A DNA stretch of 49,902 nt from the IMG/VR virus record IMGVR_UViG_3300046057_000005, positions 1 through 49,902 of that record. One strand, given 5' to 3'. The DNA comes from a virus (taxonomy: Duplodnaviria; Caudoviricetes). A program made the translations under genes and the position numbers. Below, in pieces: positions 1 to 49,902 of the stretch. The notes under the pieces were generated by a model. It was given only the letters and a program-made list of their open reading frames with translations. It was not told the origin of the DNA and ran no database searches. The stretch's first letter is position 1; every line of letters starts with the position of its first letter.

Positions 1-55
1 TTATTGTGTCGGGGCGCATTGCGTTAGGTATGGCACGAACGCCTACCCAAGCCGA
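1..55. repeat. 55-bp terminal overlap identical to 49848-49902 (circular assembly junction, lying inside the cassette repeat)
   Basis: TTATTGTGTC...CCCAAGCCGA is identical at both ends. Joining the ends places TerL upstream of the portal gene, the canonical order. Confidence 0.9.
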
Positions 56-245
56 TCGAATGATGGAAGCGAATCAGCGCGCAAAGGCCCCAGAAACCGA
101 AGAATGTGTCGTCTGTGAGTGCAACACGGATGCGCACTTTGGGGAAAATATTGTGGGCGTCGGATTCGTCTGCGATGACTGCTATCGCAAGACGGAGGGC
201 CGGGATATAGAGCGCGTCGTCAGCCGCGGCGAGGGTAAAGCATGA
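30..245 (+). CDS. MARTPTQAD-leader small Zn-finger protein
   Basis: ATG lies 29 nt after TTATTG; motifs CVVC...CDDC; stop overlaps the next ATG (ATGA). Confidence 0.75.
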   Translation: MARTPTQADRMMEANQRAKAPETEECVVCECNTDAHFGENIVGVGFVCDDCYRKTEGRDIERVVSRGEGKA

Positions 246-373
246 GCGGTCCCTTGGAATGTCGGTATTGCGGCTTGCGAAAGGACTACGCCGGCGCGTT
301 CGCGGCCGACTGCCGGAGCGAACTGTGTCCCGAGCGATCCGGTCGCCGAGGCCACGATTACCGAGAACAGTAA
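242..373 (+). CDS. 43-aa Cys-rich micro-protein (MSGPLECRYCG...CRSELCP), not in ORF track
   Basis: Manual translation; ATGA coupling to the upstream ORF; followed by a T-tract at 384-389. Confidence 0.65.
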   Translation: MSGPLECRYCGLRKDYAGAFAADCRSELCPERSGRRGHDYREQ

Positions 374-602: not shown

Positions 603-699
603 GCCGCGCCCACCTCTATTGTTAGCGGTTTGTCCTTACTCAAGACTGGTTCGGGATTGGTTACAAAGGTTTATGTGGGGATGGTTCGTCTTACGCGGC

Positions 700-1008
700 A
701 TGGGACGAACCCCTACCGAAGCCGACGACGCACCGGACGAACAGCCCGATCCGACGGGATGGGAGTGTTCTGAATGTGGCGGTACACTCGCCAAGAGCGC
801 CGAAGAATGTCCCGATTGCGGGGCAAATCCCATGACGCGCTCCACGGCGGACGGGATAGCGGCGTTCGGCGTCGCCATATCGCTCACAGTCGTTCTCGCC
901 CCGATCGGTATTCCCATCGCGGTGATTGGGTTCGCCGCTCGCTTCGCGCTACCGAAGCGGCTGGCGGTCGAATCCTCCAGCGACGCCGGGGATGGGGTCG
1001 AAGAATGA
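700..1008 (+). CDS. Zn-ribbon membrane protein with variant leader MGRTPTEAD
   Basis: CSECG...CPDCG followed by a hydrophobic hairpin; TTTATG at 670 and GTCTTAC at 688. Confidence 0.75.
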   Translation: MGRTPTEADDAPDEQPDPTGWECSECGGTLAKSAEECPDCGANPMTRSTADGIAAFGVAISLTVVLAPIGIPIAVIGFAARFALPKRLAVESSSDAGDGVEE

Positions 1009-1435: not shown

Positions 1436-1614
1436 GCGAGTTCAACGAAGACGAGTTAGTTCGTCGCCCCGATACCGGCGAACTATACGATGTTCTGGAG
1501 CAAGATGGGGACATGGTTCGTGTCGAACCGCGAAACGGGCGGCCGCTATCCCCGGACTCATTTTTCTTACAAGCCCACGTTATCGAACCTGTTAAAGACG
1601 AATGGACACCGTAA
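1432..1614 (+). CDS. hypothetical protein (60 aa)
   Basis: Acidic ORF, translationally coupled to the upstream gene. Confidence 0.6.
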   Translation: MSEFNEDELVRRPDTGELYDVLEQDGDMVRVEPRNGRPLSPDSFFLQAHVIEPVKDEWTP

Positions 1615-1690
1615 CCAAATAGTAACACTTATCGTGCCGGGGCGCATTGCGTTAGGTATGGCACGAACGCCTACCCAAGCCGACGACGAC
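1610..1690 (+). repeat. cassette repeat copy (operator variant, TATA, MARTPTQAD leader)
   Basis: CGTAACCAAATAGTAACACTTATCGTGCCGGGGCGCATTGCGTTAGGTATGGCACGAACGCCTACCCAAGCCGAC. Confidence 0.9.
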
Positions 1691-2134
1691 GCAACGATCC
1701 GACGAATCCGCGCCGACCCTCATTACCGCAACGGCCCGCTCGTTCTTCGCGCTATCATGCCGAGATTCGCGGAAGTTCGCGGCGAATATCGGCCGGTCGG
1801 ACAGAAACACGTGGGCGGCTGGCAAATGATCGAACTCGCCGAAGCGGCCGAACGCGCCGATGTGGTTCGTGGCGACGTTCCCGACGACGACGGCGTTCCG
1901 ATCATGTATGTCGGCAACCCCGGCGCGAAGCACTATTACAACGGCCACGACCCCGAAGGTATCGACGTGGACGTTCTGGAGTGGATTCGGGATAGCAAAT
2001 ACACGCTCTACGAGAACGTTGAAGGTGGCTGGGAATCGTGGGACGGCCGACCCGAGTTCTCCAAAACCCGGCTGAACCTACGTGACGCGTCGAAGGCGGA
2101 CGTAGACGCCATGATCGCCGAACGGCGCGACTGA
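1658..2134 (+). CDS. MARTPTQAD-leader hypothetical protein (158 aa)
   Basis: ATG lies inside the repeat; globular-looking sequence; followed by a T-tract. Confidence 0.8.
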   Translation: MARTPTQADDDATIRRIRADPHYRNGPLVLRAIMPRFAEVRGEYRPVGQKHVGGWQMIELAEAAERADVVRGDVPDDDGVPIMYVGNPGAKHYYNGHDPEGIDVDVLEWIRDSKYTLYENVEGGWESWDGRPEFSKTRLNLRDASKADVDAMIAERRD

Positions 2135-2151
2135 CGCGGCGACCTCTTTTT
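2135..2151 (+). terminator. CGCGGC..CTCTTTTT putative terminator
   Basis: Similar elements follow cassette genes at 18527-18544 and 48495-48513. Confidence 0.55.
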
Positions 2152-2171
2152 CCGGCTTAGTTCGCGCAAAG

Positions 2172-2201
2172 CGCGAGCGTTCGCGTTTGGTGCAATCGCC
2201 G
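2172..2201 (+). promoter_or_regulatory. 30-bp element repeated at 18588-18617 (29/30 identical)
   Basis: CGCGAGCGTTCGCG(T/C)TTGGTGCAATCGCCG lies between a cassette terminator and the next gene at both sites. Confidence 0.7.
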
Positions 2202-2235: not shown

Positions 2236-2805
2236 ATGGCCGACGACAATACCGATTCGAAGATTGACCCCACTGAGAAACTTCGCGGCGTCCTTCGCGG
2301 CATGATGGATTACCCGAGTTTTACGCCGAGCGAAGGCGTCGAATCGATCAACCTCGCAATCGAAGAACTCGCCGACGAACTAAACGCGGAAGCGGCAGCT
2401 ATCAGCATCGAACGAGTACCGTGCGCGGGTTGCGGTATGCCGACGCCAGCGCTACTCGCTCCGGCCGATTACCAGCGCGACGGTTCGCCCCGGTCGTTCT
2501 GTAAGTCGTGCGTCGAAGGTCATGCGGCCGACGACGACGGGAACGACGCCGAGAACGACGGCCACGGACCGATGGGAATGGCGGGCGGCGGCCCCCTTCC
2601 GTTTTTGGAGGTAGGCGACGGCGGGACGGGCGACGGCGGGGGCGACGACGCTCAAAAAATGCGGATTTCAAACGCCACTATCAGTATAACCAACGGCGTT
2701 GATGAACTCGGGACGCCGAGTTTTACGGTGAGCATGGAGAAAACGCCGGTCGAACGGGCCGAAGACTTGAAAGACCGCCTTCGCCGTAAGGGGCTGGATG
2801 AATGA
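2236..2805 (+). CDS. hypothetical Zn-finger protein
   Basis: CAGCG...CKSC; overlaps the portal start (ATGA). Confidence 0.7.
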   Translation: MADDNTDSKIDPTEKLRGVLRGMMDYPSFTPSEGVESINLAIEELADELNAEAAAISIERVPCAGCGMPTPALLAPADYQRDGSPRSFCKSCVEGHAADDDGNDAENDGHGPMGMAGGGPLPFLEVGDGGTGDGGGDDAQKMRISNATISITNGVDELGTPSFTVSMEKTPVERAEDLKDRLRRKGLDE

Positions 2806-9441: not shown

Positions 9442-9926
9442 TGGTAAACAAGAACAAAGCGCTCATGGGCGGGCCGCCCGCCGGGCGCGAAGATGGCGAT
9501 GTAGCCGCCGGTGAAACTCTCCAGCCGGCGATGCTTGCGGCAATCGCATCGGTCGGCGTGGACGGCGAAACGACCGAACTCAAAGCGCACGACGTGGACG
9601 GCGAGTTTTCGCCGTTCGTCGTGAAAAAGCAAGCATGGTACGGCGACGTGGAAGACGATAGCGCCGAAGCGATTAACGAAACGATCGATGCGGGCGACTT
9701 CGTGGAAGCCGCCCGCGTTAGCACGGGCAACCGGATTCTCGGTCGGCTGGCGGAAGATAGCACAACGACCGCGGGGGAAACCCGGCTGGTATCTGACGGG
9801 ACGGGCGGCGTCCGACCCGTTGATACCGCGGGCGGTGAAATCAAGGATTCGCCGTATTACCTCGCCCGCGAAGCAATCACGACTGCCGTGGGAGAAACGT
9901 CGCTGATTATCTTGGAGGTTCTCTAA
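9441..9926 (+). CDS. capsid decoration/cement protein
   Basis: 161 aa, between the protease and the MCP; LVSDGTGGVRP...AREA pattern. Confidence 0.6.
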   Translation: MVNKNKALMGGPPAGREDGDVAAGETLQPAMLAAIASVGVDGETTELKAHDVDGEFSPFVVKKQAWYGDVEDDSAEAINETIDAGDFVEAARVSTGNRILGRLAEDSTTTAGETRLVSDGTGGVRPVDTAGGEIKDSPYYLAREAITTAVGETSLIILEVL

Positions 9927-16886: not shown

Positions 16887-16963
16887 CCCCAGTACCCCGA
16901 TCCCGGTCTAACCAGCGCTTTTTTGCCGGTAAGTATAAACCCGAACAGCCCGTCTTACGGACC

Positions 16964-17587
16964 ATGGCACGGGACGCTACCGGAGCCAGACGAGTCGATT
17001 GGCCGAACGGATTCGTTCGGACGCTGCCGGAACAGCGCGAACCGAACAACTCGTTTCGCGTCACGCTATCGACGGCGCTTGACGAGTTAGAAAACGAGTT
17101 CGAACGGCTGGGTGCTGATTCTCACCACTTTTCGACAGCCATGCCGCAGCGAAAAACCGACAGCCGACCGTATGCGAACGCTACCCATCCGGATGATCCG
17201 GGGGTAGCGGCATACTGGGTCATGGACGGTGAGCAGTACGCCGTGGCGTGCGACGAGTTTACCCGAGTACGCGATAACGCGAGGTCTATCGGGCTGTATA
17301 TCCGCGAGAAACGAAAAATGCAATCGCGTCCCGTCATGACGGGACGGCCGGAGTTCTCGAACGCACGGCTACCGTCGGGCGACGACGGCGATCCGGCCGA
17401 AGCCTTCGTAAGACCCGATCATGAAATTGTCGGCGTCGATCCGGATGCATCGGAAAAAGAAATTCGGCGGTCCGCACGAGCGGAAATCAAAGCCGCGCAC
17501 CCGGATACGGCGGGGACTTCGGAATACGAGGTTGTGAGGGTAAAATCCGCGCGCGACCGGCTACTCGGCGACGATACCGAAGGGTAG
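16964..17587 (+). CDS. J-domain (DnaJ-like) protein
   Basis: C-terminal HEIVGVDPDAS.KEIRR...AHPD; own TATA (16933-16939) and GTCTTAC (16952). Confidence 0.75.
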   Translation: MARDATGARRVDWPNGFVRTLPEQREPNNSFRVTLSTALDELENEFERLGADSHHFSTAMPQRKTDSRPYANATHPDDPGVAAYWVMDGEQYAVACDEFTRVRDNARSIGLYIREKRKMQSRPVMTGRPEFSNARLPSGDDGDPAEAFVRPDHEIVGVDPDASEKEIRRSARAEIKAAHPDTAGTSEYEVVRVKSARDRLLGDDTEG

Positions 17588-17658
17588 GCGCGGGGAACGA
17601 GCGCCGAACGCTTTCGGAACTTGCTCGTATCTTTTCGCTCCGGTCGAAGGACAGCCCG

Positions 17659-17739
17659 TGTAACCATACCGTTACACTTATTGTGTCGGGGTGCATTGGG
17701 TTAGGTATGGCACGAACGCCTACCCAAGCCGACGACGAC
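17659..17739 (+). repeat. cassette repeat copy
   Basis: TGTAACCATACCGTTACACTTATTGTGTCGGGGTGCATTGGGTTAGGTATGGCACGAACGCCTACCCAAGCCGAC. Confidence 0.9.
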
Positions 17740-18525
17740 CGAACCGCAACCGAGAAGGCTACGATCATGGCGGACATTTACGAAGCGGCCGCTAACTCGC
17801 TGGAGTCGTTCGGGTACGACGCGACGGGTTCAGCCAGCTACAACCGAAGACGCCGCCACGATCATATGATGAGCACGGCCCGATCCGCGTTCAAGATGCG
17901 CGACGATGCGACAGCGTTCGAGTTCGCCAGCGAATACATCGAAACCTTCGACAAGCTAACGCGGTGCCACGAAAGCGCGTCGGGGAACTACGCGAAAAAA
18001 GCGAGCGCCGGCGTTCTTCGCTCGCTCGCGGCCGGGCTTCGCGGCTTCGCCAAGCGCGCCGAGAACAGCGAAGACGTTCCCGGCGAAGAACACCGCGAAG
18101 CTATTCACGCGCTCGCCCGTGAGGGGATGGATGCAATGGCGGTTATCCTTTGCGAGGAGTACGAAGGCGTCGGCGACGAACCCGACGCGCCCGAGTTCAG
18201 CGTAGACCGAGAACTCGCCGAATCGCTGGAGAACGGCGAAGGGGTCCGCTACGATTACGAAACCGTAGACGGCGAGCGCGTCACTGGCGACGGTTACGTT
18301 GCAAAGTCGAACACTGGCGGCGTTCGGATTATTACGGGGTCCGGGCGCTGGGCGCTCCTAACGATCAAACGCGGCGGCGCTGTTTTCGAATGTCGGCGCG
18401 ACGGCGCGGCGGGCAAGTCCCGGCGCGTCGGGTCGGACGCGAAGGTTGCGCGCGATGGAACCAGCGCGACGGTCGAATACGAACAGCGCACCGGCTGGCA
18501 AATCGGCGACGACGGCGAAGCGTAG
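17707..18525 (+). CDS. MARTPTQAD-leader hypothetical protein (272 aa)
   Basis: ATG lies inside the repeat; a T-tract follows the stop. Confidence 0.8.
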   Translation: MARTPTQADDDRTATEKATIMADIYEAAANSLESFGYDATGSASYNRRRRHDHMMSTARSAFKMRDDATAFEFASEYIETFDKLTRCHESASGNYAKKASAGVLRSLAAGLRGFAKRAENSEDVPGEEHREAIHALAREGMDAMAVILCEEYEGVGDEPDAPEFSVDRELAESLENGEGVRYDYETVDGERVTGDGYVAKSNTGGVRIITGSGRWALLTIKRGGAVFECRRDGAAGKSRRVGSDAKVARDGTSATVEYEQRTGWQIGDDGEA

Positions 18526-18655
18526 ACGCGGCAAACTCTTTTTTGGAGGGTTCGACGGCGAGCGACGACGCCGAGCGGTGGCTTTCACGCGAGCGTTCGC
18601 GCTTGGTGCAATCGCCGGTATCCATAAGGCGCGGCGGGTCTTACGAACGGTCGCA

Positions 18656-19288
18656 ATGAGCGAACAGGACCCGGAACGGCCGAACGAACCCGAGAACGAC
18701 GGCGGGCCGCCCGCAAGTCACGATAATAATGAAAGCGCCGAGAACGCGCCCAGCGACGGCATGAGCGACGACGCGCCGAACCCCGACGCTACCCCTTCGG
18801 ACGCAAACAAACACAACGAGCGCGATGTGAGCGGCCAAGACGGCGCTAACAGCGCCGAGGCCGAACTAAAGCGATGGGATGAACAAGCCCATCCCGAACC
18901 CGAGTATGCGAACCCCGAAGACTTCGGATTAACTCGGGACGGCGAAGCCGACCGCAACCCGATCGATAAGAATGTTCCCGGCGTCGGAATGTGCAATTTC
19001 ACGCCGCTCAATTACGGCGACGTTCAAAACTACTTTGGCGATGCTGGAGCGGCGGCCGAAGCCGACCCCGACACGCTCGCCAAGGTAATCCACTTTCACT
19101 TAAACGAACCCGACCTTTCGGAACTCAGCGACCGGGGCCGCGTCACGGGGACGCTAATCAAAAATATGCGGCCGATGTACCCGCGAAACGTCGTTCTCGC
19201 GCTGTTTGACGCGAGCGGTATCGAAGCCGATTTGCAAATGGATAACGAGGGGAACGCCGAGATAGAATTTGAAGAACCGGGAAACTGA
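18656..19288 (+). CDS. tail assembly chaperone (G)
   Basis: Between the tail tube and the TMP; ends CCG GGA AAC TGA with a slippery heptamer. Confidence 0.75.
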   Translation: MSEQDPERPNEPENDGGPPASHDNNESAENAPSDGMSDDAPNPDATPSDANKHNERDVSGQDGANSAEAELKRWDEQAHPEPEYANPEDFGLTRDGEADRNPIDKNVPGVGMCNFTPLNYGDVQNYFGDAGAAAEADPDTLAKVIHFHLNEPDLSELSDRGRVTGTLIKNMRPMYPRNVVLALFDASGIEADLQMDNEGNAEIEFEEPGN

Positions 19289-19572: not shown

Positions 19573-19894
19573 TTGGGGGCTGGAGTTCGCGGCCGGCGCT
19601 TTGTAGTGGCGGGGCCTACGCTGGCGATAGGCGCGGGGCTTTGGACCCCGAGATCGTCGGTTCAATTCCGACCGCCACAATATCTTAGCCGCTACCTCCT
19701 ACCGACGTTTTTCGACGCGAATCGCTAAATTAGCGCGTAAGACGGTGCGGCGCGTCTTACCGACCGATTGAGTTCATTAGGAGGGAAACGTATTATAGCG
19801 TTCGCGCGAAACGCGAACCATGACGCGAATCGCCGCGAAAACCTACCGCTTTCTCCACCGAGTTCACGGCGTCGCCGTAGGTGTTCGCTAACCG

Positions 19895-27644: not shown

Positions 27645-28259
27645 ATGCCCGAGAACGAGCGCGCGGCGCATCGATCAACGGAAACCGCGGTCGCCGAAGC
27701 GAACGTTTTCATCGACTGCTATGAACCCGCCTTACTCCACTATCAGTATCCCGAATGGCCGGCGCTATCCGACGCCGAAAAATCTCGCTTGCTGGAGGTT
27801 CCCGCGAATGATGCGAAACCGACGCCCGAAGAACGCGAACAGCGCGAAGCGAGCAACGCGAAGCTAACCAGTCAATCAACGCATAACGTGGCGACGGATG
27901 GGCTGTTCGCCGGGTTAGTCGATGGGTTAGACCCGAACACATCCGGGGACGACCCGATTCAGGCGCTCGCGGTAGGCGACGACGCGAGCGCTTTCAATCA
28001 GGGAGATTCGTCGCTGAACAGTCCGCTCGGCGAGATAACCGTAACAAACGTAATACCCGACTCCGATGCTGGAGAAATTCGATCGTCATTTTTTATCGGG
28101 ACGAACGCCTTCGAAAATCAGATATTGCGTGAGTTGGGGCTTAGTTCGCTATCCGGCCGCCTACAAAACCATGCCCCGATCGAACCCGAGATAGACAAAC
28201 AAAGCGGTGAGAAGGCCGCGACTGTCGCGGTCATTATCGGGTTCGGCCCCGGTCCGTAA
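27645..28259 (+). CDS. minor tail/baseplate protein
   Basis: HNVATDG..LAVGD..LRELGL pattern; start could be GTG at 27639. Confidence 0.55.
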   Translation: MPENERAAHRSTETAVAEANVFIDCYEPALLHYQYPEWPALSDAEKSRLLEVPANDAKPTPEEREQREASNAKLTSQSTHNVATDGLFAGLVDGLDPNTSGDDPIQALAVGDDASAFNQGDSSLNSPLGEITVTNVIPDSDAGEIRSSFFIGTNAFENQILRELGLSSLSGRLQNHAPIEPEIDKQSGEKAATVAVIIGFGPGP

Positions 28260-32154: not shown

Positions 32155-33695
32155 GCTTCGCCCCCATCATAGAACTCGCCAGCTACGTCGGTCGGTTCTT
32201 TTTCGGATTCCCCGACTTCGGACTTTACCGCGGCGGCGAGCGCCCGGTTCAGCCCCTTAATGTCGGCTAATTCCTCTTGGGTCGCATCGCGTAGGTCGTC
32301 TATTGATCGGATACCAGCGTCGTATAGCATATGGGCTTTGTGCGCCGAGATACGCGGGACGCTGGTTAGTTCGTTCAGAACGCCGTCGGGGGCTTCGTCT
32401 TTGCCGCCGTGTTCGTCCGATAGCTCAAGCGGAACGAACGCATTACGTTCGTCTTCGCTCATGGATTCGATTGCCTCGTTAACGCGAACGCGACCTTCAA
32501 CCGAGATAGCCCCGGCCCAGCGTTCGTCCGCGTCGTCGGGCGCGTCGCGGCGCGTCATGAGTCCCTTGCGGTATGCCGACCCACCCGACCACATTCGATA
32601 GGTAGCCAGCCGGTCGGTGAGCGGCGTGCGCTCGGCTACGTCGCTCGCTGTATAGTGTTCAGCGTAGGGTTGGCGTGCGAGCCATTCGAGGAACTTGAAC
32701 AGTTTCGTATCCGCAAGAAGGGGTCCGTCGGCGAGCGACATATCCGGCGGCCGGCTGAACTTAGTTTTCTCCAGCGGTTCGGTGGGTAGTCGCTCAATCA
32801 CCGGATCAACGCCGTCTTGGCCGCTCACATCGCGCTCGTTGTGTTTGTTTGCGTCCGAAGGGGTAGCGTCGGGGTTCGGCGCGTCGTCGCTCATGCCGTC
32901 GCTGGGCGCGTTCTCGTCGCCGTCCGCGTCGTCGGACCCGTCGAGAAAGCTCACTTCGATACTCGTTTGCTCACCCGGCGGGTCGTGACGCTTGGATACG
33001 TCGGTTTCGTCGGCGTTCTCGCGCCCGCCCGCGCGTGGGGCGGATTCGTCTTCCGAACCGTCGCCGTCGTCGGGTTCGGGAACGTCCATTCCGACGCCGG
33101 CCGCGAAGCCTTCGGGGTCGTTCTCGTCGTCTTCGCCATTGATTAACTCGTCGGGAATCCCGCCGCTTTCCTCCATTATCTCCCTCATTTCAGCAAAGAA
33201 CCCCTCCGCCACGTCTTCGCGCTCGGCTTGCGGGTTCTCGCTGCCTTCGTCGTCGTCCATCAACCCCGTCAAGTCGTCCGGCGCGAACGGTTCGCCGTCT
33301 ACGTCGGTCGGTTCGTCTTCGTCGTCGCCGAAGCGGGCGGCAATAGCGTCCACTTCGCCGGGCGTAAGCGGCCGCTCCACCTTTTCGGCGTACTTCAATG
33401 TCGCCGCCATGCGCTTCGCGCCGGTGCTTGGCGACGCCGCCATTCCGGGTATCATATTGGCGAGCGACTTCGGGATGTAAGACGGACCTTTCGCATCCAG
33501 CCAGTCACGGAAGTCCATCGAACAGCCCGCACAAAGCGCGAACGGTTCGCTCGCAGGTTCGGTGATTTGAACCCCGCCTTCGTTCATCCCTTCGCGTCCG
33601 AACTCGCCGTTCACGACCTCGTAAGTTCCCGTCGAAACTTCGCCGCCGCAACGGGCGCACGTTTCGCCGTCCGCACCGTTGATTGCTCCCTTCAT
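32151..33695 (-). CDS. Zn-finger / acidic linker / helix-hairpin-helix protein
   Basis: N-terminal CARC...CAGC; C-terminal LYDAGIRSIDDLRDATQEELADIKGL (HhH). Confidence 0.75.
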   Translation of the reverse strand: MKGAINGADGETCARCGGEVSTGTYEVVNGEFGREGMNEGGVQITEPASEPFALCAGCSMDFRDWLDAKGPSYIPKSLANMIPGMAASPSTGAKRMAATLKYAEKVERPLTPGEVDAIAARFGDDEDEPTDVDGEPFAPDDLTGLMDDDEGSENPQAEREDVAEGFFAEMREIMEESGGIPDELINGEDDENDPEGFAAGVGMDVPEPDDGDGSEDESAPRAGGRENADETDVSKRHDPPGEQTSIEVSFLDGSDDADGDENAPSDGMSDDAPNPDATPSDANKHNERDVSGQDGVDPVIERLPTEPLEKTKFSRPPDMSLADGPLLADTKLFKFLEWLARQPYAEHYTASDVAERTPLTDRLATYRMWSGGSAYRKGLMTRRDAPDDADERWAGAISVEGRVRVNEAIESMSEDERNAFVPLELSDEHGGKDEAPDGVLNELTSVPRISAHKAHMLYDAGIRSIDDLRDATQEELADIKGLNRALAAAVKSEVGESEKEPTDVAGEFYDGGEA

Positions 33696-36307: not shown

Positions 36308-38464
36308 CTAATACACTCGGTCGGTGTTCCGATCGATTTGCTCGCGGTACATCCGAACCAGCAATTCCGTCATGTCTGACATACCAGCGTTCACGTAGCC
36401 GTCGGGCGCGACTTCTCCGCCGTCGCCGTTCAGCGCGGGGGCGTCCCGTCCGGTTTCGAATTGCTGTTTCATCTTCGCGCTGGAGATAGACCCGACGCCC
36501 ATGCCAATGACGCGCGTTCCGTCCGCGCGAGCCCCTTGAACGACGTTATTTACCTGTTCGAATTTGGTATCGCCGGGGTACTCGGCGGTCGGTAGCCACT
36601 TCCGGGTCGCGCCGTCCGTAATCACGATTAGCAGTTTTTCGCGTTTGTCCGATCGCTCCATGAGCGATAGCGTCTCAATGATACCGTGACCGGTCGGCGT
36701 TCCGCCGGTCGAAACTATCGAATCCAGCATTTCAGGCTTGAACGCTTCGTTCGGCGCGGTAATCAGCCGCGAGTAGTTCCCGCTGTAACCCGTACTGTAC
36801 GCGGACGCTACGAGTTCGTCGCCGGTTACGTCGGTCGCAATCGATAACGCGAGCAACGCGGCTTTCGCCTTAACTTCGGTCATGGACGAACTCATATCTA
36901 CGCAAACGCCGATACATAGGTTGCCGAACGTTCGAATCTCGCGGTTCAGGTACACGTCTTTGTGCGCGTAATCGCCGCTCATATGGCGATTGACGCCAGC
37001 CATGTTCATCCGATTGCCCCGCCGGTCGGGGCTATCCCGCGGCATACTCGTTAGCTGGCGAAACGCTTCGGCGAGTTCGTCGTCTAAGTCGCGTTCGGAT
37101 AGGTAGCTTTCCACGTCTTCGTGGGGAACGCCTTCGTTGTTTTCAGTGCGTTCGTCGCGCTGTTTGATTCGCTGTGCCATGTCGCTTTGCTCGCGGCGTT
37201 CCTGTTCGCGTAGGCGCTGGGCGCGCTCGCGGGTTTCCTCGCTCGGCGTTTCGTAGCCGTCGGTCGCGTCGTACCAATCTCCACAATCGCCGTCTTCGTC
37301 CGCGCGTTCCATCGCCCCGAGTTCGTCGGCTTGTTCGTCGGTATAGTCGCCGGATTGATTCGCGTCGCTTTCGTCGCGGAAGCCTTCGGGTGACGCGCCG
37401 CCGGGGTCGCTATTCCCATCGTCGTCCGCGTCGTCGCCGCTGGCGTCTTCGTTCTCGGCGTTCTCGCCTATGGAGTTCTCGCCGTCGCCGTCGGCAGTGG
37501 TATCCCCTTCGTCTCCAGCGTCGTCGCTTGTGTCGTCGCTCACGGCGTTCTCGGCGTCCGGCTGTTCGTCCGCTTCGTCCACGCTGTTCGCGTCGCCCCC
37601 ATCGTCCGACCGATCGTATTCTTCGAAGTCCGCGGTCGCGTTCCCGTCTTCGTCTACGCGAGCGTCGGGATTTTCATACGAAACGGGAACCGGATCGCCG
37701 TCTTTGGGGTCGCCTTCGTCGGCCGGCGTCGTATCGATTTCATCCAGCAATTCCGAATCGCTGGGAACATCCGCCGAATCCAGTATGATCTTCATGGCGT
37801 CATGCGCGTACCCGTAGCGCGCCGTCGCGTCGTCTTCATGACGCACCTCTTTCAGCAATCGCCGGAGTTCCGCGAGCGCAATGCGAACGTCGTCGCTCAC
37901 TGATTCGTCGGTTACGTCTTTCGCGTATCCGGCGAACGATATTTGCAAGAAGCCTTCAACGATTTGCTCAACGTCGGTCGCCTTCGATGTGAGCGGCGGC
38001 CGCCTATGGCCGTTACTCATGATCGTTTTCGCGGCGAACGCTTGCGAACGCCGAAGCCCGGCGTAGCGCTTGCCGCGCGTGAAATCGATATAGGCGTCTT
38101 CTACGACGTTATAAACGACTGCCGCCAGCCCCGTGTTGCCGGGGTACAGACGCGCGAACCGCGCCTTATCGCTCAAACCCGATTGGCGGTAGTGTTCGAC
38201 TTCGTGCGAAAGCGTATCGGTCAGAATACGCAATTCGTTCGCGTCCGAAAGGTTGCGGCCGAACACCTCTTTAATATTGACGCCGACCGTAATCTCGGCG
38301 TCGTCCACGAGGTGATTGTTCTCCGGCCGTTCGATTATGCCCGGATCGACGGGCTGGATGAACGACCTATCACTACTGAGTTCGACCGGAATCGCCTTCC
38401 GGGTATTGTAGGTTCGCGTTAGCGACTGTAACAACCGTCGCAATGGTTCGCTGTCTTCGTTCAT
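36308..38464 (-). CDS. VWA-domain partner of MoxR ATPase (CobT/NorD-like) with HExxH N-terminal domain
   Basis: MIDAS DMSSS, GGTP and ITDG motifs; SHEVEH; acidic linker. Confidence 0.85.
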   Translation of the reverse strand: MNEDSEPLRRLLQSLTRTYNTRKAIPVELSSDRSFIQPVDPGIIERPENNHLVDDAEITVGVNIKEVFGRNLSDANELRILTDTLSHEVEHYRQSGLSDKARFARLYPGNTGLAAVVYNVVEDAYIDFTRGKRYAGLRRSQAFAAKTIMSNGHRRPPLTSKATDVEQIVEGFLQISFAGYAKDVTDESVSDDVRIALAELRRLLKEVRHEDDATARYGYAHDAMKIILDSADVPSDSELLDEIDTTPADEGDPKDGDPVPVSYENPDARVDEDGNATADFEEYDRSDDGGDANSVDEADEQPDAENAVSDDTSDDAGDEGDTTADGDGENSIGENAENEDASGDDADDDGNSDPGGASPEGFRDESDANQSGDYTDEQADELGAMERADEDGDCGDWYDATDGYETPSEETRERAQRLREQERREQSDMAQRIKQRDERTENNEGVPHEDVESYLSERDLDDELAEAFRQLTSMPRDSPDRRGNRMNMAGVNRHMSGDYAHKDVYLNREIRTFGNLCIGVCVDMSSSMTEVKAKAALLALSIATDVTGDELVASAYSTGYSGNYSRLITAPNEAFKPEMLDSIVSTGGTPTGHGIIETLSLMERSDKREKLLIVITDGATRKWLPTAEYPGDTKFEQVNNVVQGARADGTRVIGMGVGSISSAKMKQQFETGRDAPALNGDGGEVAPDGYVNAGMSDMTELLVRMYREQIDRNTDRVY

Positions 38465-38525
38465 GGCTTAGGTAGCGCCGTGTTCGTCGGCGCTTATCGG
38501 TCCGTAAGACGCGCCGGGGCATAAG
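38460..38525 (-). repeat. family-B promoter/5'UTR repeat
   Basis: About 60 bp identical to 40211-40270, extending through ATGAAC. Confidence 0.9.
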
Positions 38526-38727
38526 TGTTTCGCGTCTCTTTGCGCAAGCGTTCGCACTCGGCGCGAAACCAGCCGCGAATCCTACCCGCATCGAACCCCA
38601 TCGTTTCGCATGGAAAGCGAATTGGACACTATCGGACGTATGGTATTCGAAGCGACGCCTGAACCGACACCTATCTCTAAACAGCGATAGAACGATATGA
38701 ATGAAGGGTATGCCGGTTTATGAACGC

Positions 38728-40215
38728 TTAGGCAGCGCTTCCGTCCGAATGAACTTCGTCGCGCGCTTCGACGTAGCCTTTGCAATCGGGACACTCGCGC
38801 AACCCGGATGCTTCGGTCGGCGCGTCGGCTTCTATCTCGCTCCAGCCGCAATCGTCGCACCGTAGCACCGTCGTTTTCTCGCTCGCGCGGTCGCTCGTAT
38901 CCTGAATATAGGCGTCTCCGTCGAACGGCGTTCCGTCGAAGCGCGTCCGAATGATTTGAAGAACTTCGTCCGCCGCTGAACCGTTCTCTCCATGCCACGG
39001 TGCGACGACGTAGTTTTTCCCAGCGCGAACGATCGGGCTATCTATCTCCGCTTCGGCGTAGGCTTCGCTCGCGTTCGCCCAATCTAAGAGCGTCCCGGTC
39101 GAAACCGACTTGCGAACGTCCGAATCTTGCGGGTCTTTCGCGCGTTCCCGAACGTCGTTCGCCGCATCAACCATATCCTGAGCGAGTTCGTAGTTCGCGC
39201 CCGTCCGATCCGCGATAAGCGCCGCTTCGCGTTCCGGGTGGCCGTTATCGCGGTCGCCGAGATAGTCCAAATAGAACTTCGCGCCGTAGCGTCGCCGCTC
39301 GGCAAGGTCTAACTCTTGGGTGGCGTAGCCGGGGCCTTCGTTCATCGTCGCAATCACGACGATGTTCGTCGGGTCGCCCCGGATCGTTTCGTTCCCGATT
39401 GCCGGGATGGTCACGCTACCGCGGTCGTCTAACGCGCTGAATAGCGCCGCCTTCGTTTGCGCTGGAGCGCGATTCACTTCGTCTATCAGCAAGACGACGG
39501 TGTTCTCTTGACTGAATCGAAGCGCCTGCGTAACCGGACCGGGCTGGTAAAACGAGTTCGACCCCGAGAACACGGGCGTCCCGACAATATCAGCCGCGTG
39601 GAGGTCGGGGCTACCCTGAACGGTAATCAGCGCCCAATCGTTCCGCGCGGCGATATGGCGAGCGAGGTGGGTCTTTCCCGTCCCGGTATCTCCCGAAACG
39701 AGCGCCCGCACCGGCTTGCCAGTGCGCTCGCGTAGGTCTATCTCCGCGTTTAGTTCGCGTAGTTCGCCGCCGCTCGGGACGTAATCAGCAACGTCGTCGG
39801 GGACGAACCGATCATATTCGTCGTTCCACACGGCGGGCATGGCTTGCTCGCCGTCGCCCGGCTGGTTCGACCCAGCCGGCCCGGCGTCGTTATCGAACGC
39901 TGCACCGTCGCCGAGCGCGCCGCCAAGCGCGTCGGCGAGTTTCCGAACGTCTACGGACCCATCGCCCGATGCGTCCGCTTGTGTGACGTTCTCAGCGCTC
40001 GTATCGGCTTGCACTTCGGGATGGGTTTCGGCCGGGCCGACCGAATACTGGTATGACCCGCCAGAACGCTCGCGGGCGACCGAGTTATTCGGGTCTTCGG
40101 CCATTTCCTTCAACGCCCGCCCGACATGGCGGTGGTCGAGTTCTACGAACTCGGCTATCTCTTTTGCTGTTCTCCGGTCGTCGGCTATCGCGGCGCGGAC
40201 TTCGCTTTCGTTCAT
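38728..40215 (-). CDS. MoxR-family AAA+ ATPase (CbbQ/NirQ/GvpN-like) with N-terminal wHTH and C-terminal Zn ribbon
   Basis: Walker A GDTGTGKT, Walker B LLIDEVNR, ATMN; CDDC...CPDC. Confidence 0.88.
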   Translation of the reverse strand: MNESEVRAAIADDRRTAKEIAEFVELDHRHVGRALKEMAEDPNNSVARERSGGSYQYSVGPAETHPEVQADTSAENVTQADASGDGSVDVRKLADALGGALGDGAAFDNDAGPAGSNQPGDGEQAMPAVWNDEYDRFVPDDVADYVPSGGELRELNAEIDLRERTGKPVRALVSGDTGTGKTHLARHIAARNDWALITVQGSPDLHAADIVGTPVFSGSNSFYQPGPVTQALRFSQENTVVLLIDEVNRAPAQTKAALFSALDDRGSVTIPAIGNETIRGDPTNIVVIATMNEGPGYATQELDLAERRRYGAKFYLDYLGDRDNGHPEREAALIADRTGANYELAQDMVDAANDVRERAKDPQDSDVRKSVSTGTLLDWANASEAYAEAEIDSPIVRAGKNYVVAPWHGENGSAADEVLQIIRTRFDGTPFDGDAYIQDTSDRASEKTTVLRCDDCGWSEIEADAPTEASGLRECPDCKGYVEARDEVHSDGSAA

Positions 40216-40277
40216 GGCTTAGGTAGCGCCGTGTTCGTCGGCGCTTATCGGTCCGTAAGACGCGCCGGGACTTATAG
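40211..40277 (-). repeat. family-B promoter/5'UTR repeat
   Basis: Copy of 38460-38525. Confidence 0.9.
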
Positions 40278-45453: not shown

Positions 45454-45855
45454 CCCGCTGGATTCATATACCTACGCGAGATAGGTACAATCGCCCCTTA
45501 GATGGGGCGGCTTAGGTAGCGTGTTCGTCGGACCCCTTCGGGGGTCCGTTCCGCTATAAATCGCCCATGAGCGCCCAGCCCGGCGTTCGCCGCCCGCCGA
45601 GACGCCGATACTCTTATGCTAACTACGCCCGACGCAACGAACGCGAACGGCGTTTACTGTCCGCGTCGTTCGCCAAAGCTCCCACCCTGTAATCGGGCCG
45701 CGCCGACTCGTGGGCGGCGAAGCGGTTGATTCGCGGCTTTTCTCCGCGATAGTCCGCGTTCGGCCCGATTTTCAACCCAGTCCCGAGAACCTACCGGCGT
45801 CTTCTTGCGGGCGAGTTCCCGTTATTCCTATCAGTACCCGACCCGTCTTACCCGC

Positions 45856-46935
45856 ATGGCGAGCGCAAACAACGACGGATCGGACGCCGACGAACAGCTT
45901 ACGCCGAACGGCTACCGGGACGAGTTCGACGTTCCCGATTACGTTCCCGCCGACTACGACGGCCCGGTAGCCCGCGAGGATAGCCGCGGCGAGGTTCGCC
46001 GTCTTTGCTTGGTCGAAACCAACGGGACGGGAAAACCGTGTTCGAACTACATGGATACTTGCCGATTTCACGATCATACGCTCGGCGAACTCAAACCAGC
46101 CGATGAACGTCCCGATAACGGTGCGCCGCTCAAACTCGTATCGGACGACAAAAACGAGAGAAAAGCAATCGAAGGCGCGAAAGACGGTCTACGAATCCGT
46201 GACATAGCGGCGCTTTTGTCAACTACTCAGCCGACGCTTTCAAACGCGATTAACCGAGGGAAAGCGGTTCACGATATACCTGATTCAGAACTATCTGACA
46301 AAGAAATCCGGTTCAAGTCCTTCTTTAATCGCTTCAAGCGCGCGTGGGGCGTTGGGACTGAACGGCTGGTTCAGGGCGCGCTCTACGACGACGACATAGA
46401 TACGCAAGCCGCGACGTTCATGCTGGAGCGCTCGCGCGATTTCATCAAAACCGAACGGCGAGAAGTTGACGCGAATATCACGAACGACCGCGACGACGAC
46501 GAAGGATATGAAATCCTGAACGCCGAAGGCGGCCGCGTCCATCCCGATCGGTCGCAAGAAGCGCGTCGCAAGCGCAACCAGAAAGCCCAGCGCGAGAAAC
46601 AAGCCGAAAGCGACGACGAGAACGCCCCCATTCCGGTCAAATCGCAAACGATCAATAGCTCCGAATCGGTCGACGGCGGCCGAACGGCCGACAACTCCGC
46701 CCCACGCGCGGGCGGGCGCGGAGCGAACGACGTGAACCAAACAGATAGCACGTCCGTAGACGCCCAGCCGGACGACGCGAGCGGTGCAAATAGCCGTGCG
46801 AATGATGCGAAACCGACGCCCGAAGAACGCGAACAGCGCGAAGCAAGCGATCGAAACGATCCGCCGAGCGGGAACCAGCCGCTAACGGGTCGCGTTCCCG
46901 ACGGCTACGAATGTGACGACGGGGCCGAAAAGTGA
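45856..46935 (+). CDS. terminase small subunit (putative) with disordered C-terminal tail
   Basis: HTH-like GLRIRDIAALL..TL..AINRG and F..FKRA...ATFMLERS; upstream of TerL; GTCTTAC at 45845. Confidence 0.6.
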   Translation: MASANNDGSDADEQLTPNGYRDEFDVPDYVPADYDGPVAREDSRGEVRRLCLVETNGTGKPCSNYMDTCRFHDHTLGELKPADERPDNGAPLKLVSDDKNERKAIEGAKDGLRIRDIAALLSTTQPTLSNAINRGKAVHDIPDSELSDKEIRFKSFFNRFKRAWGVGTERLVQGALYDDDIDTQAATFMLERSRDFIKTERREVDANITNDRDDDEGYEILNAEGGRVHPDRSQEARRKRNQKAQREKQAESDDENAPIPVKSQTINSSESVDGGRTADNSAPRAGGRGANDVNQTDSTSVDAQPDDASGANSRANDAKPTPEEREQREASDRNDPPSGNQPLTGRVPDGYECDDGAEK

Positions 46936-47149: not shown

Positions 47150-47581
47150 CTATCCGCCGGACCCACTGGATTCGTCGTTTGCATCCCTATCCGGCTGTTC
47201 ATATCCGGCTTTCTCGTCCCGGCTGTTCAATTCTTCAACCAAGCGGGTCGGCGTAATTCCCAGCCGGTCGGCTTCGTCGCGTATCACTTTGTACTCGGTC
47301 GAACGCGGCGATTGTTCCCATCGAATTATATTGCGGCCGCGGAGTACGCGCGCCGTGACGGTAAGCCGGTCATGAACTCGGTCTAATCGATCCGCGAGCG
47401 TCTGTCCGGAACCGTCGTTATCTCCGGAACCGTCGGCGGCGACCGAACTAAGGTATTCATCCAGCGCCGCGAAAAGTTCTGCATGCTTTCGCTCGGCTTC
47501 GTCGCGGGCTTGCTCGTATTCCCCTCGTTTAATGCGGACTGTATCTAACAGGGCTTCGGGATTCGGCTGGTTTGAACTCAT
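47150..47581 (-). CDS. hypothetical protein divergent from the cassette promoter
   Basis: MSSNQPNPE start; helical character. Confidence 0.55.
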   Translation of the reverse strand: MSSNQPNPEALLDTVRIKRGEYEQARDEAERKHAELFAALDEYLSSVAADGSGDNDGSGQTLADRLDRVHDRLTVTARVLRGRNIIRWEQSPRSTEYKVIRDEADRLGITPTRLVEELNSRDEKAGYEQPDRDANDESSGSGG

Positions 47582-47643
47582 GCACTCGCCCCTAACGTGG
47601 CGACGAGAACGGAAAAGCGTTCGACGGGCTGGATACAAGACCG

Positions 47644-47722
47644 TGTAACCATACCGTTACACTTATTGTGTCGGGGCGCATTGCGTTAGGTATGGCACGA
47701 ACGCCTACCCAAGCCGACGACG
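47644..47722 (+). repeat. cassette repeat copy
   Basis: TGTAACCATACCGTTACACTTATTGTGTCGGGGCGCATTGCGTTAGGTATGGCACGAACGCCTACCCAAGCCGAC. Confidence 0.92.
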
Positions 47723-48210
47723 AAGCGGCCGACGACGCACAGAACGAAGAAATCGACCCCGACAAGACCTTCGACCTCGTGGCGGACAAATGGCTGTCGT
47801 GGAAGGCCATTAGCCGTCATCCTAACAAGAAGGCTTGCAAACCGTGGGCTCAGGAAATCACGGGGACGCACGAGAAATACAACGTTGATGGGGAATGGCT
47901 TGAGAAGAAGACCATCGACGGCGGTATCAAATTCGACGTTTCTGGGTTGCATCGCGGAAGCATCGTCAAGGTGTCCGGGGCGTCGCACAACAACCGCAAG
48001 CACGCGTACTGGCGCGTCGAAGAAGTCAACGGCGAGTTCGCGGTTTCGCGGATGGACGAATCCGCCGTTATCGAGGAAATGACGGAACGTGAGAACAACG
48101 GCAACACAGAACTTCGGCAGCAAGTCCGTCGGCTGGCTGACGAGTGCGACGACCGGAACGCGCTCCAAGGGGCTTTGCGGGCGCTCAAGAGCGACGCCAG
48201 CGACGAGTAG
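47692..48210 (+). CDS. MARTPTQAD-leader hypothetical protein (172 aa)
   Basis: ATG lies inside the repeat. Confidence 0.8.
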   Translation: MARTPTQADDEAADDAQNEEIDPDKTFDLVADKWLSWKAISRHPNKKACKPWAQEITGTHEKYNVDGEWLEKKTIDGGIKFDVSGLHRGSIVKVSGASHNNRKHAYWRVEEVNGEFAVSRMDESAVIEEMTERENNGNTELRQQVRRLADECDDRNALQGALRALKSDASDE

Positions 48211-48537: not shown

Positions 48538-49821
48538 ATGCCTAAGCAAGTGCGCCGGAAGTGGTCGCCGCACGACGGACAGAAACCGATCATTCAATCC
48601 CCCGCTCGCTTCCGTGTCTGTCCGTGCGGCCGCCGGTTCGGCAAGACTGAAATGGCACAGTACGAAACGGCCGACTTCGCGCTTGAACAGCCGGGCGCGC
48701 TCGTTTGGTGGATTTCTCCCAGCTACGACGACGCGAACGAACTCGGCTATCTACCCATCAAACGAATCTTAGAATCGATCGATATGGTTGCGGACTTCCG
48801 ACGGCAGAAACCTCGATATATCGAACTCCCGAACGGGTCGCGCATATCCTTTCGATCCGCCGACCGTCCCGAATCGCTTCAAGGGCGTGGCGTAGACTTC
48901 ATTACGGTTGACGAAGCGGGCGACGTTCAGGGAGAAACCTACCGCGCGGAGATTCGACCCTCCGTTACGGATACCGGCGGCGATATACTCCTAATCGGGA
49001 CGCCCACGGGTCGGAACTACTTTCAAGACCTATACGAACGCGGGAACGACCCGGCGAATCCGAATATTCAGTCCTTTCAGCGCACCTCGTATCAGAACCC
49101 GCACGTCCCCGATTACGAGATAGACGCCGCCCGCGACGAACTACCCGAGCGCGTGTTCGAACAGGAATATCTCGCCAAATTCGCCGAAGCGGAAGGCGCG
49201 GTATTCCCCGGCGTTTGGGATAGGAATTGTGTCACCTACGATTTGCCGAGTTACGAGGGAACCAGCCCGTACTATACGGGCGTGGATTTGGGCCGGCAAA
49301 AGAACTTTAGCGCTATCTCGGCGCTGGATTCGAACGGTCGGCTGGCGCACTTCGAAAGGATTCGCCGGGTATCGTGGCAATTAATCGAAAACCGGGTAAA
49401 GCGCGTCGCCGCCGATTACGGCCCGTCGTTCATCCGCATGGATGCGTCGCGGGATAACCAGATAGTCGAAAACATCGATTCGGCTGTTCGGTCCGCGACC
49501 GTCGAATACGTCAAATTCGGCGGCGGAAAGACGAAGAACAACCTAATCGAAAACCTAAGCGCTCGGCTTGAACTCGGCGATATTCGGCTACCGGATTCGG
49601 GCGACGCGCTATATATTATCTTACCGGAACTTCGCGCGTATCAGTACGACACGACGAAGGCGGGAAATGTCCGATACGGCGCGCCCAGCGGGACGCACGA
49701 CGACGCGGTAGACTCCCTTGCTCTTGCCGCGAAGCCAGCCGAGAACGTGGAGAACTCGGGAACATGGGGGCGCTCGGCGGGGCGTTCGGCGGCCGCCGAC
49801 GGCCCGAGCGGGACGTTCTAA
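48538..49821 (+). CDS. terL: terminase large subunit
   Basis: Walker A CGRRFGKT, Walker B ITVDEA, RNase H GVDLG and HDDAVDSLALA. Confidence 0.93.
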   Translation: MPKQVRRKWSPHDGQKPIIQSPARFRVCPCGRRFGKTEMAQYETADFALEQPGALVWWISPSYDDANELGYLPIKRILESIDMVADFRRQKPRYIELPNGSRISFRSADRPESLQGRGVDFITVDEAGDVQGETYRAEIRPSVTDTGGDILLIGTPTGRNYFQDLYERGNDPANPNIQSFQRTSYQNPHVPDYEIDAARDELPERVFEQEYLAKFAEAEGAVFPGVWDRNCVTYDLPSYEGTSPYYTGVDLGRQKNFSAISALDSNGRLAHFERIRRVSWQLIENRVKRVAADYGPSFIRMDASRDNQIVENIDSAVRSATVEYVKFGGGKTKNNLIENLSARLELGDIRLPDSGDALYIILPELRAYQYDTTKAGNVRYGAPSGTHDDAVDSLALAAKPAENVENSGTWGRSAGRSAAADGPSGTF

Positions 49822-49829
49822 GGTACACC

Positions 49830-49902
49830 GTAACCATACCGTTACACTTATTGTGTCGGGGCGCATTGCGTTAGGTATGGCACGAACGCCTACCCAAGCC
49901 GA
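49830..49902 (+). repeat. cassette repeat copy (continues into position 1)
   Basis: GTAACCATACCGTTACACTTATTGTGTCGGGGCGCATTGCGTTAGGTATGGCACG... Confidence 0.92.

Follow-up and report, generated by a model that had tools for sequence, protein, structure and literature searches.

Lambdoid morons are self-contained units of promoter, open reading frame (ORF) and terminator that lie between conserved late genes and are absent from relatives, and the internal proteins of phage T4 carry a short N-terminal targeting leader, are cleaved by the prohead protease and are packaged into the head. Here we analyze a dispersed block that combines an inverted repeat, a TATA-like box, a start codon and a nine-codon leader in the tailed virus record IMGVR_UViG_3300046057_000005 of IMG/VR (49,902 nucleotides (nt), one strand, 5′ to 3′); this whole record is referred to below as the window.

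The closest described systems are built on repeated promoter elements. In T4-type phages, promoter-early-stem-loop elements (PeSLs) are repeated promoter and stem-loop motifs that reach the start codons of ORFans and bring about insertions, deletions and replacements among closely related phages (Arbiol et al. 2010, PMC2839356). Among haloarchaeal viruses, most left-arm ORFs of HGTV-1 are described as being preceded by a TATA-like box and an inverted repeat, which were likened to PeSLs (Sencilo et al. 2013, as presented in PMC3950731). The repeats of HF2 have promoter activity in reporter assays, and across the genus both they and their locations are conserved (Russ et al. 2021, PMC8707807). 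In Hardycor1, six ORFs have related repeats of 20-83 bp upstream of them, and one repeat overlaps three coding sequence starts, so that the encoded proteins share the N-terminus MNANT; no functional reading of these repeats was offered (Dyall-Smith et al. 2021, PMC7911831). With these three haloviral precedents in print, a sequence-only reading of the window was wrong to call its cassette system possibly undescribed in haloviruses.

Architecture of the repeated block

The window contains five copies of the block, all within the packaging/head/tail half of the genome. A search with the 55-mer spanning TTATTG to GCCGA hit positions 1, 1629, 17678, 47663 and 49848 with zero to two mismatches (0.00 expected), the matches at 1 and 49848 being a single copy counted twice through the overlap of the record's ends. 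The same four copies form an 83-nt repeat family on the plus strand, beginning at 1601, 17650, 47635 and 49820 and 82-90% identical to the copy at 1601. They are called class A here and contain the palindrome TGTAAC-N6-GTTACA, the box TTATTG, and an ATG opening the codons for MARTPTQAD. A fifth, diverged copy (671-725, 62% identity) starts the leader MGRTPTEAD at ATG 700 and has the order right palindrome arm, TATA, class B element (see below), leader.

49820..49902, continuing as 1-55, plus strand: class A block, copy 1, with palindrome 49830-49846, TTATTG 49848-49853 and ATG 49877 (= 30).
1601..1683, plus strand: class A block, copy 2, with broken palindrome 1611-1627, TTATCG 1629-1634 and ATG 1658.
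17650..17732, plus strand: class A block, copy 3, with perfect palindrome 17659-17676, TTATTG 17678-17683 and ATG 17707.
47635..47717, plus strand: class A block, copy 4, with perfect palindrome 47644-47661, TTATTG 47663-47668 and ATG 47692.
655..1008, plus strand: fifth, hybrid copy with its cargo; GTTACA 660-665, TTTAT 670-674, class B element CGTCTTAC 687-694 and ATG 700.

The four near-identical plus-strand blocks with palindrome, TATA and MARTPTQAD that the sequence-only reading had reported were thus recovered by the 55-mer, repeat and palindrome searches alike. Its account of the inverted repeat (perfect at 17659 and 47644, GTAAC/GTTAC at 49830, broken at 1610) agrees with the palindrome search, which placed perfect copies at 17660 and 47645, the GTAAC/GTTAC-only copy at 49830 and the broken one at 1611. 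Its inventory of four copies stands, and it had missed the fifth copy, a shared 3′ element and a second promoter class. Within the window, GTAAC-N6-GTTACA with at most one mismatch is confined to the four class A blocks (7 strand-matches, with 0.44 expected); three of these four have a perfect or near-perfect palindrome, and the fifth copy keeps the right arm alone.

Two IMG/VR records from different samples are related to the window. One, a linear record of 48,184 nt (G001), is collinear with it over long stretches at 76-92%, mostly about 80-85%, identity and likewise has five block copies, all of them with the palindrome and four with a perfect one. The other (G002, 6,224 nt) matches at 93% identity over 4.8 kb in the region of ORF189 and the portal gene. 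Among isolates, Halorubrum virus Hardycor1 is nearest, its TerL being 46% identical over 94% of the length. A degenerate leader pattern found four sites, all within the single IMG/VR record G001, and the fifth G001 block was found by the palindrome search. A composite pattern returned 15 loci in IMG/VR, of which two are real (G001 and G002) and 13 unrelated. In metagenome and genome collections the degenerate leader pattern gave 16 loci, none of which (0/16) has the block upstream; these look like chance matches within bacterial-type sequence. Searches for related loci with TerL and with the cargo alignment recovered G001 alone, and against phage isolates megablast (25 kb) and blastn (block) gave no match, or chance 18-21-mers alone. 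DNA of the window itself was found in halite metagenome runs from two studies.

In all eight class A copies (four in the window, four in G001), TTAT occupies -29 to -26 relative to the A of the ATG and the palindrome spans -48 to -31; the -11/-10 element is TT in six copies and GT in two. Start sites in Haloferax are reported to have the TATA box TTWT and a WW element at -10, and 72% of the transcripts have 0-5 nt ahead of the start codon, that is, are leaderless (PMC4983044). Because the positions of TTAT, the -10 TT and the ATG fit this haloarchaeal pattern, we read the block as a predicted haloarchaeal promoter of leaderless mRNAs, whose transcript would start at the ATG or at most 4 nt before it. 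In the reporter-proven repeat promoters of HF2, the TATA box begins at -26, and mutating the conserved start-site region abolished activity (PMC8707807). The block matches this type in position alone, with TTAT at -29 to -26 and an almost invariant stretch from +1 to +26.

Besides the class A blocks, a second predicted promoter class (class B) has a TATA followed after 8-10 nt by (GGTC)CGTCTTAC(GGACC), itself a short inverted repeat. Its core CGTCTT(A/G)C has 25 matches in the window, 10 of which are found 4-48 nt ahead of a predicted start codon, on one strand or the other; examples are at 465, 687, 7620 (minus), 16951, 36173 (minus), 38511 (minus), 40262 (minus), 43123, 45844 and 48238. Class B elements precede the genes of an AAA ATPase, a von Willebrand factor A (vWA) protein, a TerS-like protein and a J-domain protein, among others. 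The TerS-like gene probably starts at the in-frame ATG 45856, 4 nt past its class B element, rather than at TTG 45805. The MoxR-like AAA ATPase and vWA genes, assigned with PHROGs, lie side by side in the minus-strand half of the window (36308-40215), as in Hardycor1, and each is preceded by a 68-nt block (38456-38523 and 40207-40274, 97% identical) with a long leader and the start ATGAACGAA.

Two further candidates near the blocks were examined and set aside. Copy 4 adjoins, back to back, the start of a divergent gene on the minus strand encoding 143 amino acids (aa; 47150-47581), but as a candidate regulator its product gave nothing in Atlas, and its AlphaFold2 model, with a predicted local distance difference test score (pLDDT) of 57.7, was unusable. 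A candidate RNA hairpin at the 5′ end (GGUAUGGC-ACGAAC-GCCUACC) was rejected, as the folding energies of 10 copies, taken in two frames, fell at z = -1.3 to +1.3 relative to shuffles and neither the type II nor the hybrid copies of G001 preserve the stem. Among Rfam families, only tRNA matched in the window.

Cassettes with variable content between conserved ends

Behind the four class A blocks lie ORFs of 71, 158, 272 and 172 aa, and with that of the fifth copy the five cargo ORFs share the start M(A/G)RTPT(Q/E)AD.

30..373, plus strand: cargo of copy 1, a 71-aa CxxC ORF (30-245) joined through an ATGA overlap to a 43-aa CxxC ORF (242-373).
ATG 700 to 1008, plus strand: cargo of the fifth copy, 102 aa, with a zinc ribbon and a C-terminal hydrophobic segment; ortholog in G001.
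1658..2134, plus strand: cargo of copy 2, 158 aa; a different cargo occupies the same locus in G002.
2135..2201, plus strand: 3′ element, copy 1, consisting of GACGCGGCGACC, a T5 run, then GAGCGTTCGCGTTTGGTGCAATCGCCG.
17707..18525, plus strand: cargo of copy 3, 272 aa; residues from about 118 are homologous to ORF_A of G001.
18526..18617, plus strand: 3′ element, copy 2, consisting of a stop codon, GACGCGGCAAAC, a T6 run, then GAGCGTTCGCGCTTGGTGCAATCGCCG.
47692..48210, plus strand: cargo of copy 4, 172 aa, with an AlphaFold2 model.

The sequence-only reading saw no similarity among the four ORFs past the block, and BLASTP comparison of seven proteins without their first 10 residues agrees, with none of the 21 pairs below E = 0.01 and a best value of E = 0.032 over 10 residues. 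This best pair joins the 158-aa cargo (1658-2134) and the J-domain protein (16964-17587) through the motif GRPEFS(K/N)(T/A)RL; GRPEFS is also kept in a 44% homologue of the 158-aa cargo.

Some of the ORFs also end alike. The 3′ ends of the 158-aa and 272-aa ORFs of the window, a zinc-ribbon ORF of G002 and ORF_B of G001 are mutually alignable and consist of the last codons with the stop, CGCGGC(G/A)A, a T-run, and (G/A)A(G/A)CGTTCGCG(C/T)T(C/T)GGTGCAATCGCCG. A 27-mer of this 3′ element occurs twice in the window with zero or one mismatch (0.00 expected), and the promoter of the next gene lies directly 3′ of the element. With a shared 5′ block and a shared 3′ element, some cassettes therefore have conserved ends on both sides.

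Comparison of the three genomes reveals gain or loss, replacement and movement of the content. The window unit from 49822 to about 415, comprising the block, the 71-aa and 43-aa CxxC ORFs and a T6 run (384-389), is missing from G001, where the TerL stop is followed within 24 nt by sequence matching the window from 427 onward; in Hardycor1, TerL and portal are separated by 248 nt in all. Like a moron, cassette 1 has a predicted promoter and terminator of its own, lies between conserved genes and is absent from the relative G001. Ahead of ORF189 and portal, the window has a block with the 158-aa ORF and G001 a 161-aa ortholog, and at the same locus G002 carries a block with a 138-aa ORF starting MARTPTEAGRMMEANQRAK and a 57-aa zinc-ribbon ORF. 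These two G002 ORFs correspond to the two ends of the window's 71-aa cargo, at 69% and 72% identity; in the window that cargo is located after TerL, unlike its G002 homologues before ORF189 and portal. At the replaced locus, the homology between G002 and the window ends near +25 of the leader and restarts in the 3′ element.

The region behind the major tail gene has been rearranged as well. In G001 the order is block, ORF_B (147 aa), gene X, 65-aa ORF, block, ORF_A, tRNA and tape measure; in the window it is block, 272-aa ORF (110 aa plus ORF_A), gene X, 65-aa ORF, tRNA and tape measure, and ORF_B is absent. The last 155 residues of the 272-aa ORF match ORF_A, in which the leader is joined directly to ...ESIEEVPGEEHRE, in the middle of the longer gene. 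Two metagenomic proteins (P0017 and P0018, 85% and 73% identity) have the leader, the 110-aa domain and the ORF_A segment, one of them with a different C-terminus. The ORF_A fusion suggests that the block module can make a new in-frame gene start inside a gene. ORF_A (reverse complement of 9146-9757 in G001) is frameshifted relative to the window after ...RELAES, owing either to genuine disruption of the gene or to a sequencing mistake in that record. Where the window, G001 and G002 differ by insertion, deletion or replacement, the changes end in the shared motifs, as has been described for PeSLs.

The sequence-only reading had proposed looking for different ORFs behind the block at one locus, and the zinc-ribbon cargo of G002 opposite the 158/161-aa cargo is such a case. 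Its idea that the cassettes are exchangeable is upheld by the absence of cassette 1 from G001 and by the tail-region cargoes, which differ and have moved. Of its wider proposal, a co-regulated cassette system for accessory effectors, one predicted promoter class, the shared palindrome and exchange between relatives stand, but no function could be assigned to the cargo that would make the products effectors.

Profile searches with PHROGs, Pfam and NCBIfam assigned no family to the cargoes: the 102-aa ORF had weak zinc-ribbon matches, the 272-aa ORF a match to Birna_VP4 below threshold, and the 172-aa ORF a weak one to a PHROG of unknown function. The AlphaFold2 model of the 172-aa cargo (pLDDT 75.7) has a disordered stretch at residues 1-20, followed by a beta-rich domain and three helices; it had no Foldseek match in the PDB at E ≤ 0.001, and the best VIA Z was 4.5. 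Atlas returned nothing usable for the 272-aa cargo, and tblastn of three cargoes against 50,697 phage records gave no match. Since neither a family, a fold nor an isolate relative can be assigned to the cargo, anti-defence or host-takeover roles are a guess. The GC content of the cargoes (0.57-0.64) is close to that of the genome (0.583) and of the core genes (0.58-0.61), and the deviant composition of morons is not seen.

The genes around the cassettes were assigned with PHROGs, which also identified a MuF-like head protein, a capsid-like protein, a neck protein and a 1640-aa tape-measure protein.

48538-49821: TerL.
2802-4664: portal.
45805-46935, plus strand: TerS-like gene (phrog_4102, E = 4e-4, weak).
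16890..17600, plus strand: inserted unit of a class B promoter and a 207-aa ORF (16964-17587), absent from G001.

The positions given in the sequence-only reading are thus partly right: TerL and portal lie beside cassettes, the TerS assignment is weak, and its 'tail tube' turns out to be the inserted 207-aa gene, which has a weak DnaJ J-domain match with the HPD motif (Pfam E = 3e-4, below the cut-off). G001 holds 5 nt in place of the inserted unit. The N-terminus of the 207-aa protein is MARDATGARR, and its first 27 nt resemble the leader at 17 of 27 bases.

Other repeats and an RNA gene were noted in passing. A tRNA-Gln gene (anticodon TTG; 19604-19681, plus strand), found by ARAGORN and Rfam (46.3 bits) and with matching sequence in G001, lies between tail-chaperone-like genes and the tape-measure gene. 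An inverted repeat of 111 nt (18735-18845, plus, and 32810-32920, minus; 99% complementary) sits in the tail-chaperone-like gene X and in the gene of a 530-aa HhH protein, which are unrelated but encode there the same 37-residue acidic stretch; its contig has double depth in run X1. A direct repeat of 51 nt (27804-27854 and 46798-46848, plus strand; 98% identity) falls in a tail-region ORF and in the TerS-like gene, and its contig also has double depth.

A proposed regulated promoter module and rival explanations

We consider it probable, if by no means certain, that the block is a regulated, virus-specific promoter of leaderless mRNAs with its own start codon and nine-codon leader, behind which cargo is gained, lost, replaced and moved. 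TBP and TFB would bind the TTAT box at -29 to -26, and transcription would start at the ATG or within 4 nt of it. Since host mRNAs are mostly leaderless, promoter and start codon would be forced to travel together as one unit. A dimeric regulator bound to the palindrome (-48 to -31, over the position of the TFB recognition element (BRE)) could switch the five genes together, and the T-runs would end transcription of each unit. Homologous recombination between the dispersed 5′ and 3′ elements would homogenize them and swap the content between, as in PeSL cassettes; this type of recombination is proposed because no integrase or recombinase was found among the scanned ORFs. The leader peptide would more likely be a tolerated by-product ahead of an acidic disordered linker than a signal.

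The pattern of substitutions bears on whether selection acts on DNA or on peptide. Across the eight class A copies, positions +1 to +26 contain a single difference in 208, and the TATA-ATG spacer exists in two versions within G001. Position -42 is C in all four window copies and G in all four G001 copies, and position -25 is T, C, T and T in the window and G in all four G001 copies; copies are thus closer to their genome-mates than to their positional orthologs, which indicates concerted evolution. Between the window and G001, 449 of 1174 four-fold sites differ (38%), against 0 of 18 in the leaders of three pairs and 1 of 24 when the fifth pair is included (binomial P about 1.5e-4), a test that concerted evolution weakens, a single comparison being 0/6 with P of about 0.06. 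None of the 11 homologues of the 172-aa cargo found in metagenomes (46-55% identity) has the leader, and of the homologues of the 158-aa cargo one of 44% identity lacks it and one of 71% starts MARTPTKADD. The 10-mer GGCACGAACG is exclusive to the repeat blocks in the window (4/4 sites), G001 (5/5) and Hardycor1 (4/4), being coding in the window and upstream of the ATG in Hardycor1. Because distant homologues of two cargoes lack the leader and its four-fold sites are frozen, we favour reading the leader as part of a nucleotide module, as judged from these alignments, rather than as a proven peptide tag.

Several points weigh against the promoter-module account, beyond the weakening of the four-fold-site test. 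Promoter, start site and operator activity are read from geometry alone, the BRE consensus CGAAA is absent from the BRE position of the block, and no regulator was identified for the palindrome. The near-invariance of +1 to +26 exceeds what a passive by-product would need, and the fifth copy, which swaps the promoter spacer and keeps the leader, fits a peptide function too. The resemblance to the Hardycor1 repeat comes down to one exact 9-mer (GTCGGGGCG) and one exact 10-mer (GGCACGAACG) in the same order; the local alignment is not significant, since its score is reached in 71 of 2000 shuffles and in 229 of 2897 genome windows. The events of exchange are few (three genomes and three extra proteins), their recombination mechanism is deduced from breakpoints, and the contigs mapped on the window show no alternative block-block junction apart from repeat cross-mapping.

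The best surviving alternative, although an unlikely one, is that the leader MARTPT(Q/E/K)A is a functional tag, for capsid targeting, for processing or as a chaperone or protease handle, and that the conservation of the DNA is secondary. All five cargoes begin with the leader and an acidic linker, disordered in the one modelled, and the position of every cassette among packaging, head and tail genes would suit such a tag. So would the hybrid fifth copy, which retains the leader despite having a class B element in place of the spacer and in which a single synonymous change (ACG to ACC) does not alter the peptide, and the presence of MARTPT in relatives known as proteins alone. The leader is, however, missing in 11 of 11 homologues of the 172-aa cargo and in the one with 44% identity to the 158-aa cargo, peptide constraint alone would not require its four-fold sites to be frozen, the changes at codon 7 are non-synonymous (Q/E/K), codon 9 varies (D/G/E), and the core 10-mer is non-coding in Hardycor1. 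Slightly less likely again is the more specific idea, drawn by analogy, that the leader would be an address label routing any protein fused to it by an acidic linker into the virion or into a viral processing machine. Were it correct, the virus would possess a plug-in payload system with promoter, start codon and targeting tag in one recombination module, which would combine PeSL-type mobility with an archaeal equivalent of the T4 internal-protein system.

It seems distinctly improbable that the blocks are sites of integron-like or homing-like site-specific recombination, with the palindrome as recombinase or nuclease site. Conserved 5′ and 3′ cassette ends around variable content, and a perfect 6-bp palindrome of fixed spacing, would be expected of such sites. 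Yet no integrase, recombinase or homing nuclease was found in 60 ORFs searched with PHROGs (30 of them also with Pfam), where the MoxR-like ATPase gave the sole 'integration and excision' row through a match in its AAA domain (E = 7e-5). The cassettes carry their own predicted promoter, unlike integron cassettes, the palindrome keeps a fixed distance from TATA and ATG, and the breakpoints lie downstream in the leader and not at the palindrome.

Even less credible is a gene duplication whose paralogous products diverged except at the 5′ end. The shared start of five genes on one strand is what it would explain; it is contradicted by the lack of similarity past residue 10, the differing sizes and predicted architectures, the occurrence of cargo families elsewhere without the leader, an upstream non-coding part as conserved as the leader, and the replacement of cargo between fixed ends.

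The first 55 nt of the window are repeated as its last 55 nt (1-55 = 49848-49902). This 'direct terminal repeat', by which the record was classed, is the dispersed block itself and recurs at 47663-47717; the overlap is thus weak proof of completeness, which CheckV estimates at 77%, and the closure of TerL, block and cargo 1 rests on the 55-nt overlap and synteny. An assembly artefact behind the repeats or the block-cargo links can nevertheless be dismissed as hardly conceivable: the record does start and end within a repeat and Logan contigs do break in every block, as expected for 31-mers, but the copies differ by a few bases, G001 and G002, from other samples, hold several blocks inside long contigs with the same synteny, contigs from a run of the second study also carry the window's arrangement, joining TerL to the block (49074-49859), connecting that block across cargo 1 with the following one (26-1667, 20 differences) and, in others, covering the remaining cargoes, and the alternative pairing would close a small loop without the rest of the genome.

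If the promoter-module account is correct, halite archaeal viruses offer a natural example of how accessory genes enter a conserved array of structural genes: promoter, start codon and short leader move together, and a shared 3′ end closes the cassette. In hosts that translate mostly leaderless mRNAs a promoter without a well-spaced ATG of its own would likely be of little use, which suggests why the ATG is mobile. The five cargo families are candidates for host-interaction functions, and the block is a candidate compact regulated expression module for haloarchaeal genetics. No long-standing question is altered by these findings.

Comparison with known systems

The inserted and replaced units differ from lambdoid morons in sharing one promoter-start module and, in part, one 3′ module. 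With the T4 internal proteins they have in common a short N-terminal leader on otherwise unrelated small proteins at variable loci.

The likeness to PeSLs (PMC2839356) is closer: as far as those are described there, a repeated promoter with an inverted repeat extends to the next start codon, stands before ORFs of unknown function, and marks where changes end. The present block differs in its archaeal TATA-type layout in place of a sigma-70 promoter, in an inverted repeat that is AT-rich, covers the BRE position and looks like a protein site rather than a GC-rich terminator stem, in its extension 27 nt into coding sequence, and in a separate 3′ element with stop codon and T-run. PeSL cassettes are also characterized by mini-circles that are excised through recombination between the motifs. 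A sigma-70 early promoter is not what is found, given the archaeal layout and a nearest isolate infecting Halorubrum; the block therefore works like a PeSL without being a member of that class.

HGTV-1 is likewise a haloarchaeal tailed virus with repeated TATA and inverted repeat, for which roles in regulation and shuffling were proposed (PMC3950731). By that description its many copies sit in one arm of the 144-kb genome, with no mention of a common coding leader or 3′ element. The repeats of HF2 resemble the block in having a TATA box beginning near -26 and a conserved start-site region; in the account of PMC8707807 they stay at fixed places in the genome, and neither exchange of cassettes nor a common coding leader is described. 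Five HF2 motifs (beta, gamma, class II core and alpha) had no match on either strand of the window.

Hardycor1 shows the same order of palindrome, ACTTAT, GTCGGGGCG and GGCACGAACG, and a repeat that overlaps coding sequence starts and yields identical N-termini. Its repeat consists of the palindrome ATATCG-N5-CGATAT, ACTTATGT, then GTCGGGGCGACCCGGCACGAACGACC, then ATG AAC; it differs from the block in this palindrome and in the ATG being downstream of GGCACGAACG, which is non-coding there, and according to PMC7911831 such repeats stand mostly before early, minus-strand genes.

The general principle, exchange of genes behind a repeated promoter element, has already been published for T4-type phages and proposed for HGTV-1. 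The system of the window is distinct from these known ones in its coding leader, its separate 3′ element with a stop codon, and the direct evidence for replacement of cargo at one locus.

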